DNA from: Candidatus Aenigmatarchaeota archaeon
GTDB taxonomy: Archaea > Aenigmatarchaeota > Aenigmatarchaeia > Aenigmatarchaeales > JACQIB01
Assembly: GCA_016198755.1 (NCBI GenBank)
Contig: JACQIB010000005.1
Location: 176,931 to 240,930 of the forward strand
Length of the DNA: 64,000 nt
Direction: 5' to 3'
Within the stretch, counting starts at the first letter, position 1. The number at the start of each line of letters is the position of its first letter. A program made the position numbers and the translations under genes. The notes under the pieces were generated by a model. That model was not told the DNA's origin. It did not search any database and saw only the letters and a program-made list of their open reading frames with translations. Below, piece by piece: positions 6,310 to 57,963 of this stretch.

Positions 6310-6329
6310 TGCGGCACAAACACTGAAAC

Positions 6330-6462
6330 GGCCCGATGGCTCAGACTGGTTAGAGCACCACACTGATAATGTGGGGGTCGAGAGTTCAAAGCTCAGGGGG
6401 ACGTTTCCCCCTACAGCCCTACCCCCTCTTGGTGGAGCTGGAAAATCTCTCTCGGGCCACCA
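6330..6462 (+). tRNA. tRNA-Ile (anticodon GAU) with a ~55-nt insertion in the T-loop (about position 59/60), CCA encoded
   Basis: GGCCCGA TG GCTC AGACTGGTTA GAGC A CCACA CTGATAA TGTGG GGGTC GAGAG TTCAAA[6391..6445]T CTCTC TCGGGCC A CCA. All stems pair perfectly once the bracketed block is removed. Confidence 0.85.
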
Positions 6463-56898: not shown

Positions 56899-57084
56899 TG
56901 GTGCGGGGGAAGAGAGTTTCACTGCGCTTTGAACTCTTGAAGGGCCTGCGCCCACAGGATTTCTTTCATTGCGCGGCTTTCGGCCGCAGCTCTGAACTTA
57001 GGGCATGCCTTAAGTGTCGCAGACCGTTGTCTCCTGCGCATTTTCTGCTCGCGCGCAGCGCGCACCGAGCTTTGCTACCCCCGC
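56899..57084 (-). tRNA. class II tRNA, most likely tRNA-Leu, 186 nt with insertions in D-loop (19 nt), anticodon region (65 nt total) and T-loop (12 nt); CCA encoded
   Basis: Minus strand: GCGGGGG TA GCA AAGCTCGGT[GCGCGCTGCGCGCGAGCAG]AAAA TGC G CAGGA [72 nt] TCCTG T GGGC GCAG GCCC TTC AAGAG TTCAAA[GCGCAGTGAAAC]T CTCTT CCCCCGC A CCA. Long variable arm and A73 point to Leu. Anticodon candidates are UAA (CTTAAG) or CAG (TTCAGAG). Confidence 0.75.
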
Positions 57085-57104
57085 ACAATTTAGTTGTACA
57101 GAAC

Positions 57105-57114
57105 ATTATATATA
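57105..57114 (-). promoter_or_regulatory. TATA box (TATATATAAT on minus strand) upstream of tRNA-Leu
   Basis: About 21-30 nt upstream of position 57084. Confidence 0.5.
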
Positions 57115-57177
57115 GTCTTCTCTTGAGCATGTTGCTGGAAGGGAGAGGTTGGAAGGAGATACGCAGTTTCTCCCCCA

Positions 57178-57963
57178 TTAGAGCTTGCCAACAGCCTTTC
57201 CAAAATCCTTTGATTTTTTCCTTAGAATTCCTAGAGCTGAGAGGAAAATTTCCTGTGATGAAAGTGCAGAAATGCTCTCTATATTAAATATAAAGCGGGT
57301 TGGGTCACCTGAAAGCTTTAGGGAACCCTCTGGTTTTGCTATTTTGTCTGCTCTGCATGAAAGATCACACTCAAAGCCTATGCGGGCTTTCCCATCCTCG
57401 AAAACTATTCCCCTCTGAGGGCAGGCTTTCATAACTTCCTCTGGATTTTCAATTTTTCCTTTCTGTTCTAGAACAGGATAATAGCGGTAGAAAGAACGTG
57501 CAGCCTGATATTTTGCATGTCTCCCTCCAAACCCAAGTACAGCAACAGCTTCAAATTTTAGCCTTTGTCCCTCGAAAAGCTCCACAATTGGGGTTTCAGG
57601 ATATAAAGGAGAAGCTGCTTTTGAATCAGCAGATTTCAGGTCTTTTGCATAGACCATGCAGGGTCCTTTCTTGTCCAGAACAAAAACAATCTGGCAGTTT
57701 GAGCATCCCTTTCCCTCACATGTGCATTCTGAAGTAAGGTTAAAGGCCTTTGAATCAAACTTTAAAGGAAGCAAACCAAGCCTGTGTGCCAAAATCTCAT
57801 CATACATTACAGAATCATTTGAATTGAAATCTACTGTGTCTATTGCAAGAATAGGTATTTCGTTCATCATTATTCTGCGCAAAGCGTTGGCAAACTGGGG
57901 TGTAAGACTGTCTGCAACCATCCTTATTTCCCCTTCTGTAGAAGCAAGAATTTGTATGTTCAT
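57178..57963 (-). CDS. rpoD: DNA-directed RNA polymerase subunit D (Rpo3)
   Basis: 261 aa; FANALRRIMMNEIPILAIDTVDF..NDSVMYDEILAHRLGLLPL plus Cys clusters (CTCEGKGCSNC). Confidence 0.88.
   Translation of the reverse strand: MNIQILASTEGEIRMVADSLTPQFANALRRIMMNEIPILAIDTVDFNSNDSVMYDEILAHRLGLLPLKFDSKAFNLTSECTCEGKGCSNCQIVFVLDKKGPCMVYAKDLKSADSKAASPLYPETPIVELFEGQRLKFEAVAVLGFGGRHAKYQAARSFYRYYPVLEQKGKIENPEEVMKACPQRGIVFEDGKARIGFECDLSCRADKIAKPEGSLKLSGDPTRFIFNIESISALSSQEIFLSALGILRKKSKDFGKAVGKL

Follow-up and report, generated by a model that had tools for sequence, protein, structure and literature searches.

The 64,000-nt stretch of DNA analysed here (the window) belongs to a 0.89-Mb assembly (40% G+C) of an uncultured DPANN-type archaeon. 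On its minus strand, positions 57178..57963 encode RNA polymerase subunit D (rpoD; Pfam PF01000 and PF01193), the conserved upstream neighbour of a 186-nt locus, 57084..56899, that by its structure and conservation is a real tRNA-Leu(UAA) gene of this tiny uncultured archaeon. A TATA-like box, CTATATATAAT, can be read from the sequence of the same strand at 57105..57115, its centre lying about 26 nt upstream of tRNA position 1. Orthologues of the gene display TTTATAAAT-type boxes at an equal distance upstream of the tRNA, and the box in the window is likely the archaeal promoter of the tRNA gene. Three ORFs also run over the locus, one of 128 aa on the plus strand (56901..57287) and two on the minus strand, of 70 aa (56966..57178) and 48 aa.

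Read on the minus strand, the locus has the order GCGGGGG-UA-GCA...UGC-G-CAGGA...UCCUG-U-GGGCGCAGGCCC-UUC-AAGAG-UUCAAA...U-CUCUU-CCCCCGC-A-CCA, and CCA is likewise encoded in every tRNA gene of the genome. Standard finders pass over it. Thus, ARAGORN, run with and without its intron option, returned no match at 57084..56899 in searches of the window and of the whole genome, and the Rfam tRNA model returned none at the locus, either at the gathering threshold or at E<=10 (600-nt search and whole genome). The tRNAs recognised in the window are two according to ARAGORN, an Ala and a truncated Ile, and one according to the Rfam model. When four insertions are removed, a cloverleaf is restored: ARAGORN assigns the resulting 89-mer to tRNA-Leu(taa), in a regular class II fold, and the same call is obtained for all 25 orthologues spliced in this way, whose lengths are 87-90 nt. 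The spliced sequence has the features of a class II tRNA-Leu, namely a long variable arm, a 3-bp D stem, G18 G19 and a UUCAAAU T-loop, together with the discriminator A73, G37 and the Leu anticodon UAA. The locus is thus best read, with a probability of about 0.88, as the single functional tRNA-Leu(UAA) gene of the archaeon, in which five exons are separated by four bulge-helix-bulge (BHB) introns that would be removed by protein enzymes to give an 89-nt class II tRNA.

The exon and intron borders of the precursor were set by applying the archaeal BHB rule, according to which a 4-bp helix stands between two 3-nt bulges and the cut falls after the second bulge base (PMC4090602); an arrow marks this place in the bulges given below. 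The precursor of about 186 nt is then divided into exons of 20, 12, 7, 33 and 17 nt and introns of 20, 17, 48 and 12 nt, the latter totalling 97 nt. Exon 1 (57065..57084) covers positions 1-19, with the 5' strand of the acceptor, U8 A9, the D-stem strand GCA and the D-loop through G18 G19. Intron 1 (20 nt, 57045..57064) follows G19 in the D-loop; its helix is GCUC/GAGC, the bulges are GG↓U and AG↓A, and the inner helix has 5 bp. A second valid BHB register exists for this intron, giving 18 nt (57046..57063); the 20-nt register is favoured because the intron-less D arms of the orthologues in the related genomes G001, G010 and G017, which read ...GG AAAA..., match the D arm that it leaves. Exon 2 (57033..57044, positions 20-30) carries the remainder of the D-loop, the D-stem strand UGC, G26 and C27-G30 of the anticodon stem. 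It is followed at 30/31 by intron 2 (17 nt, 57016..57032), in which the helix is formed by CGCA (nt 25-28) and UGCG, the bulges are GG↓A and AC↓A and the inner hairpin is GAC-AACG-GUC; placing this intron at 31/32 instead yields an identical product.

Exon 3 (57009..57015) is a micro-exon of 7 nt, ACUUAAG, made of A31 and the anticodon-loop positions 32-37 with the anticodon UAA. Intron 3 (48 nt, 56961..57008) occupies the canonical 37/38 site, with the anticodon stem as its outer helix, a helix CUUA/AAAG and bulges AG↓G and AA↓A. Its BHB core is slightly relaxed, consisting of three Watson-Crick pairs and an A·A, and a perfect CUUA/UAAG is found in most orthologues. Exon 4 (56928..56960, positions 38-59) includes A38, the 3' strand of the anticodon stem, the long variable arm, the 5' strand of the T stem and the T-loop sequence UUCAAA. 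Intron 4 (12 nt, 56916..56927) interrupts the T-loop at 59/60, using UUCA (54-57) and UGAA as helix, AA↓G and AC↓U as bulges and the T stem as outer helix, and it lacks an inner helix. It resembles a member of the GCGCAG...UGGAAAAU family of T-loop introns that has lost part of its interior. Exon 5 (56899..56915) then supplies U60, the 3' strands of the T stem and of the acceptor, A73 and the encoded CCA (56901..56899). Introns 1, 2 and 4 display strict BHB motifs, with four Watson-Crick pairs and 3-nt bulges, and introns 1 and 2 count as relaxed (HBh'-like) forms because their outer helices are weak.

The original prediction of a class II tRNA-Leu masked by insertions is thereby borne out, and every element that it named is present: the acceptor GCGGGGG/CCCCCGC with A73 and CCA, the D stem GCA/TGC, the anticodon stem CAGGA/TCCTG, the variable arm GGGC-GCAG-GCCC, the T stem AAGAG/CTCTT and both hairpins of a 72-nt block between the anticodon-stem strands. 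Its estimate of about 96 nt of insertions at three or more sites was close, BHB analysis giving 97 nt at four sites. The T-loop block of 12 nt (56927..56916) lies exactly where it had been placed, and the D-loop block, given as 19 nt (57045..57063), is corrected to 20 nt (57064..57045) by the BHB rule and the intron-less relatives. The 72-nt block does hold extra sequence, which is really two introns (57032..57016 and 57008..56961) around the 7-nt exon (57015..57009).

Relatives were sampled by a DNA search of 41 of them and then by an RpoD search of the 42 genomes of the order. Among named entries, the RpoD proteins closest to that of the window, at 40-55% identity, come from MAGs labelled unclassified 'archaeon', Woesearchaeota and Aenigmatarchaeota, all of them DPANN-type relatives. 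A comparison of rpoD-adjacent tRNA-Leu loci, as had been proposed, found that about 29 genomes from this order have a tRNA-Leu(UAA) orthologue adjoining rpoD, directly downstream and on the same strand except in G003, where it is inverted. The synteny suggested beforehand therefore stands for rpoD across this order, and rpl18e, also named as a neighbour, is not adjacent to the tRNA here. Junctions in the relatives were set by BHB-guided curation, the palindromic and repeated CTTAAG being misleading for automatic spliced alignment. The orthologues carry introns at the same four sites, of unrelated sequence and of lengths ranging from 12 to about 112 nt. The D-loop intron is missing in G001, G002, G010, G017 and others, the 30/31 intron in G002, G006, G017 and others (at least 10 orthologues), and the 59/60 intron in G004, G031 and others, and wherever one of these introns is missing, the exons meet without interruption exactly at the assigned junctions. 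Because each non-canonical intron is missing in several orthologues, the exon junctions are fixed. The 3' motif UGCG-NN↓A of intron 2 is common to 13 orthologues, and the D-loop introns of G003, G021 and G031 display no clean BHB at the assigned junctions.

An alignment of 21 spliced orthologues gives cloverleaf pairing in 483 of 483 stem cells (100%, against 84% in shuffles), a figure that is partly by construction in the acceptor and T stem, the pairing of which served as a search criterion for orthologues. Sliding the partners by 1-3 columns lowers the pairing to 38-60%. Compensatory changes on both sides are seen in 12 of the 23 pairs, and the covariation score of 0.41, compared with 0.11 in shuffles, was reached by none of 500 shuffles; the agreement goes far past what chance would give. 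The D and variable stems had not been preselected, and all six of their pairs covary.

These data also bear on the overlapping ORFs. For the 128-aa and 70-aa ORFs to be real protein genes, with tRNA features that are incidental, there speaks the fact that the frames are open. None of the three ORFs overlapping the locus has a Pfam match, the one of 128 aa passes antisense across the end of rpoD, and what is conserved in the region is a tRNA, with covarying stems and with introns whose sequence and length vary freely in a manner incompatible with coding. A protein-coding origin of the signal thus has a negligible probability, and the ORFs are almost certainly spurious, as had been supposed.

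A further reading concerns the anticodon, for which two alternatives had been proposed, UAA within CTTAAG flanked by two introns and CAG within TTCAGAG. The former is borne out. Indeed, the relatives G002 and G006, devoid of intron 2, have CAGGACTTAAG as a contiguous sequence, and the anticodon loop reads CUUAAGA in every spliced orthologue. A gene with three introns rather than four would require either that the 72 nt be one intron or that a CAG, or dual UAA/CAG, anticodon arise by alternative splicing. This possibility draws on the TTCAGAG segment pointed out in the original prediction and on a strict BHB-like motif, UUCA GA↓G/UGAA AG↓A, located at precursor positions 95-122. Excising the 72 nt as a whole removes the anticodon loop; the motif at 95-122, the sole strict one at TTCAGAG, leaves a 9-nt loop when used, and a nested-intron model in which 77-90 and 95-122 are both excised leaves a 13-nt anticodon loop, so that both models were rejected and no BHB-compatible splice route leads to CAG. 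Moreover, TTCAGAG lacks a preceding UGCG acceptor motif, the CAG reading puts A37 where every spliced orthologue has G37, and the segment is unconserved, most orthologues having UUUUGA or UGUUGA there. The CUN codons are already covered elsewhere in the genome by tRNA-Leu(UAG) and tRNA-Leu(GAG). A three-intron gene is accordingly very improbable, and TTCAGAG is here read as a 2-nt spacer followed by a D'-like box (CAGA).

The four-intron tRNA-Leu(UAA) gene also has to be weighed against a decaying pseudogene, in which the insertions would never be removed and the reading of UUA would fall to another tRNA. What can be said for such decay is that standard detectors find no match at the locus, that the BHB of intron 3 is imperfect and that the assembly is incomplete. 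A scan of the 0.89-Mb assembly based on acceptor stem, T arm and CCA recognised about 38 tRNA genes, most of them with T-loop introns from a few repeated families, and standard tools recover 9-18 of these. Most tRNA genes of the genome are thus interrupted likewise. Four Leu genes are present, with the anticodons UAA (in the window), CAA (C6:66985-67109), UAG (C2:223156-223339) and GAG (C5:115577-115740), and no second tRNA gene with a UAA loop was found in the assembly, which is about 89% complete. A 'tRNA-Leu(taa)' reported by ARAGORN at C2:174431 was rejected, being a gene for tRNA-Asn(GUU) that contains an intron of 10 nt. Among the codons, UUA is common, amounting to 16.2 per 1000 codons and 18% of Leu codons in 544 long ORFs. 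With all stems intact and covarying across the 21 aligned orthologues, the synteny and the promoter-like box conserved, and strict BHB motifs for three introns exactly where they are needed, a pseudogene is highly unlikely.

The machinery that splicing of the tRNA-Leu(UAA) precursor would call for is encoded in the genome. Two tandem EndA paralogues of 171 and 178 aa each combine N- and C-terminal endonuclease domains (PF01974 and PF02778), and the catalytic histidine, judged by eye, is kept in the 178-aa protein only. Such an EndA arrangement has been linked to a broad substrate range (PMC5829648). The RNA ligase RtcB is identified by PF01139. A TATA-box promoter of its own, just downstream of rpoD, would drive transcription of the gene into the precursor of about 186 nt; the two-paralogue endonuclease would cut every 3-nt bulge behind its second base, and the exons would be joined by RtcB. 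The BHB of intron 2 uses nt 25-28 freed from the anticodon stem, and the BHB of intron 3 needs this stem (27-31/39-43) as its outer helix. Because both draw on anticodon-stem nucleotides, the two BHBs are mutually exclusive. Cutting introns 2 and 3 before any ligation would free the 7-nt exon, and a stepwise removal with intervening ligation is therefore expected. The simplest order would be to remove intron 2 first, which would keep the 7-nt exon attached, whereas introns 1 and 4 would be independent of the ordering between introns 2 and 3. We infer in this way that the gene is transcribed and its product aminoacylated, as well as where the actual splice junctions lie and in which order the introns leave. 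Dependencies among closely spaced introns have been described by Chan et al. (PMC8450103).

For archaeal tRNA genes, the published maximum is three introns, with up to 71 introns in 46 genes (Chan et al. 2021, PMC8450103), and three is also the maximum in the nuclear tRNA genes of the red alga Cyanidioschyzon merolae (Soma et al. 2013, PMC3728597). Full-text literature searches found no other tRNA gene with four introns. As assigned here, the four introns of the window gene exceed the published maximum by one, although the kind of intron is itself known. Among its relatives, G025 has four introns at the same sites with good BHB motifs, and G021 and G003 appear to have five each, including one in the variable arm, with the borders of two D-loop introns being uncertain. 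Multiple-intron tRNA genes were reportedly described in Thermoproteales (Pyrobaculum, Thermofilum and Caldivirga) by Sugahara et al. in 2008. The latter resemble the present gene in having BHB introns at canonical and non-canonical sites (D-loop, anticodon stem and T-loop), an endonuclease of broad specificity built from two subunit types and a sequential removal of closely spaced introns. They differ from it in having at most three introns rather than four and in belonging to crenarchaea, whereas the host here is a DPANN-type archaeon of 0.9 Mb; the 7-nt middle exon is a further difference. The genes of C. merolae share with it D-arm, 37/38 and T-loop introns with BHB motifs. The alga is a eukaryote, however, and in none of its genes is the anticodon stem itself interrupted by an additional intron; the removal order was shown experimentally in C. 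merolae, whereas here it is deduced from sequence.

Intron 3 may have a function of its own. Upstream of the last six bases, which form its BHB strand, and separate from them, the intron displays the order CCCUAAG, 2 nt, CAGA, hairpin and AAUGAAA. The first of these segments, CCCUAAG (56997..57003), is a putative guide and a second complement of the anticodon loop, pairing, apart from a single A36·C mismatch, with C32-G37 and the first base of the intron. The D'-like box CAGA (56991..56994) stands exactly 2 nt past it. Such a spacing between a 6-7-nt complement of loop 32-37 and the box places the fifth base upstream of the box opposite nucleotide 34, which is U34 here. The hairpin GCUGCGGC-CGAAA-GCCGCGC (56971..56990) is predicted to fold and would serve as canonical stem in a putative kink-turn; at this place orthologues have unrelated hairpins or loops of 5-7 nt. 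It is followed by a C'-like box, AAUGAAA (56964..56970), with a 3-nt bulge AAU and a GA that, together with the GA of CAGA, could make tandem sheared G·A pairs.

Box C/D sRNAs have the consensus boxes RUGAUGA and CUGA, with guides usually of 8-12 nt, and combine terminal C/D with internal C'/D' pairs at a spacing of about 12 nt. Compared by eye with the consensus, AAUGAAA is degenerate relative to the GUGAUGA of G010, whose boxes are the textbook pair CAGA/GUGAUGA; most orthologues have UUGA with AUGAUAA or GAUGA, and the boxes in the window keep the G·A core and the 3-nt bulge with a weak non-canonical stem. No second box pair was found in intron 3 or in the flanking exons. Because this pair is absent, the module is not filed as a box C/D sRNA, and it maybe acts like half of one. 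Nop5, fibrillarin and two proteins of the L7Ae family are encoded in the genome.

The module recurs in the relatives and in other tRNAs. The order CUUAAG, NN, NNGA (mostly UUGA or CUGA), hairpin or loop, and then AUGAUAA, GAUGA or GUGAUGA is kept in 22 of the 24 tabulated orthologues, and G012, which lacks a 37/38 intron, has the module in its 30/31 intron instead. In the genome of the window, a like design with the same 2-nt spacing occurs in the introns of tRNA-Met (C5:96089), tRNA-Trp (C5:99342), tRNA-Arg(UCU) (C1:24934) and tRNA-Leu(CAA), the offset of the GA being identical in all five tRNA species and in the 22 orthologues. The complement tracks the anticodon between isoacceptors, since loop and complement read CUUAAG/CUUAAG for UAA as opposed to CUCAAG/CUUGAG for CAA. 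In shuffled introns, a mismatch-free motif arises in 1e-4 to 5e-4 of trials. The module is also carried by a Glu-like gene (C6:69663), for which the anticodon-loop reading CCUUCG is uncertain.

On this basis, the 37/38 intron is tentatively proposed, at a little less than an even chance, to be a self-contained, cis-acting half box C'/D' guide for the methylation of U34, a role that would extend to Leu(CAA), Met, Trp and Arg(UCU) in this genome and, for Leu(UAA), to the whole order. The second anticodon-loop complement would pair with nucleotides 32-37, and a kink-turn formed by the NNGA and RUGA boxes would recruit L7Ae, Nop5 and fibrillarin. The wobble nucleotide 34 would then receive its 2'-O-methyl group, after which the precursor would refold to form the BHB and undergo splicing.

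A guide nested in an intron has a precedent, the archaeal pre-tRNA-Trp intron, in which a box C/D guide directs Cm34 and Um39 (Clouet d'Orval 2001; Singh 2004) and which reviews describe as unique (PMC4090602, PMC2584109). Both cases involve a 37/38 intron in which a segment is complementary to the anticodon loop, such that nucleotide 34 faces the fifth base upstream of a D-type box, and in both the methylation would have to come before splicing. The host here is, by contrast, a tRNA-Leu, as well as Met, Arg(UCU) and Trp, and the module possesses one D'/C'-like box pair and one guide of 6-7 bp; target and guide would form an intramolecular hairpin. In Pyrococcus, the tRNAs in which nucleotide 34 is targeted by C/D sRNAs are exactly Leu(CAA), Leu(UAA), Met and Trp (PMC7994747). 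Target nucleotide and tRNA set are thus the same, whereas three of the four guides are separate genes in Pyrococcus and the guide-like module stands here inside the own intron of each target.

The segment could equally be a structural scaffold, either an L7Ae-bound kink-turn or a plain hairpin, with a part in folding or splicing, or a functionless inheritance rather than a methylation guide, and this is a serious possibility, falling slightly short of evens. It would accord with a single box pair (a half-mer) and a guide duplex of just 6-7 bp, with boxes that are degenerate in this genome (CAGA and AAUGAAA) and a guide bearing one mismatch. It would also accord with G003 and G004, where the boxes are lost and the tRNA is kept, and with the Met, Trp and Glu-like modules, whose similarity in sequence suggests common descent. 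A scaffold leaves unexplained the exact 2-nt distance from complement to GA box, seen in five tRNA species as well as 22 of the 24 orthologues, the way in which the complement follows changes of the anticodon, and the retention of the module in the 30/31 intron of G012. It likewise does not explain why the tRNAs concerned are those guided by C/D sRNAs at nucleotide 34 in Pyrococcus (PMC7994747).

Standard finders miss most tRNA genes of this lineage, and 'missing tRNAs' in DPANN bins can thus be an annotation artefact. The presence of four introns, and apparently of five in relatives, together with a 7-nt exon, indicates that tiny exons and mutually exclusive splice motifs are tolerated. Ordered splicing is made directly testable by this gene, as it would involve one short transcript and two recombinant proteins. 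If the guide works, the 'unique' case of tRNA-Trp would be widened to a set of tRNAs, providing a concrete function for an archaeal tRNA intron. The retention of introns would then be tied to the methylation of the wobble base, which would offer a selective reason for keeping canonical introns in reduced genomes.

The 48-nt intron at position 37/38 of the four-intron tRNA-Leu(UAA) gene (window 57084..56899, minus strand) carries a guide-like module, read as a putative half box C'/D' guide, in which a 2-nt spacer separates the anticodon-loop complement from NNGA, after which come a hairpin or a loop and then an RUGA box. The same order is common to four other 37/38 introns, located outside the window elsewhere in the genome: those of tRNA-Met (C5:96089-96198), tRNA-Trp (C5:99342-99559), tRNA-Arg UCU (C1:24934-25058), labelled Phe by ARAGORN, and tRNA-Leu CAA (C6:66985-67109). 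By the N+5 rule applied to the sequences, nucleotide 34 is the putative target of all these modules. A Glu-like gene, also outside the window (C6:69663-69800), may be a sixth case. The tRNA-Leu(UAA) orthologue adjoining rpoD in the related genome G012 (locus L032) is devoid of a 37/38 intron, and its 30/31 intron holds CUUAAG-UC-AUGA-CUAAA-GAUGAU, so that another intron carries the guide-like module there.

Intron number was also compared among orthologous genes. The orthologue of G025 (L033) includes four introns with clean bulge-helix-bulge (BHB) motifs, and those of G021 (L015) and G003 (L002/L014) apparently include five each. Both have two introns in the D-loop, one at 30/31 and one at 37/38, the fifth being a 72-nt intron in the variable arm for G021 and a 59/60 intron for G003. 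With the junctions assigned here, some of the D-loop introns have borders that are not compatible with a BHB. An intron-less "tRNA-Leu(taa)" called by ARAGORN in the same assembly (C2:174431-174516, outside the window) is in fact tRNA-Asn(GUU), interrupted by a 10-nt intron at 37/38.

The 12-nt T-loop intron of tRNA-Leu(UAA) (56916..56927) reads GCGCAG-UGAAAC. Compared with C2:88186-88310, outside the window, and with the "GCGCAAGAAGGGGAG" family, it looks like a form of the longer GCGCAG...UGGAAAAU introns that has kept both ends and lost what lay between them, and would thus be near-minimal, seemingly retaining only the BHB-forming bases. The "GCUCAGGGGGA..." T-loop intron family includes the 56-nt 59/60 intron of tRNA-Ile(GAU) (6330..6462, plus strand), whose true length is 133 nt; ARAGORN called a truncated 78-nt gene (6328..6405) and the Rfam score is under threshold. 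Two further copies outside both the window and the recognised tRNA list (C3:17759-17799 and C3:31444-31481) may mark additional tRNA genes overlooked by our tRNA scan.

The RtcB ligase gene (C5:42797-45628, outside the window) is a single open frame of 1010 aa in which Pfam RtcB positions 1-50 and 48-426 lie ~1.4 kb apart, this insert being probably an intein.

A free-standing copy of the "GGAGGAGAAACUACGUAUCUCC..." T-loop intron family (57139..57173, minus strand, 91% over 35 nt) sits between the likely tRNA-Leu(UAA) promoter and the rpoD stop codon, the other copies in the genome being within seven tRNA genes. Because one copy is found outside any tRNA, this distribution suggests DNA-level movement or decay of the element.
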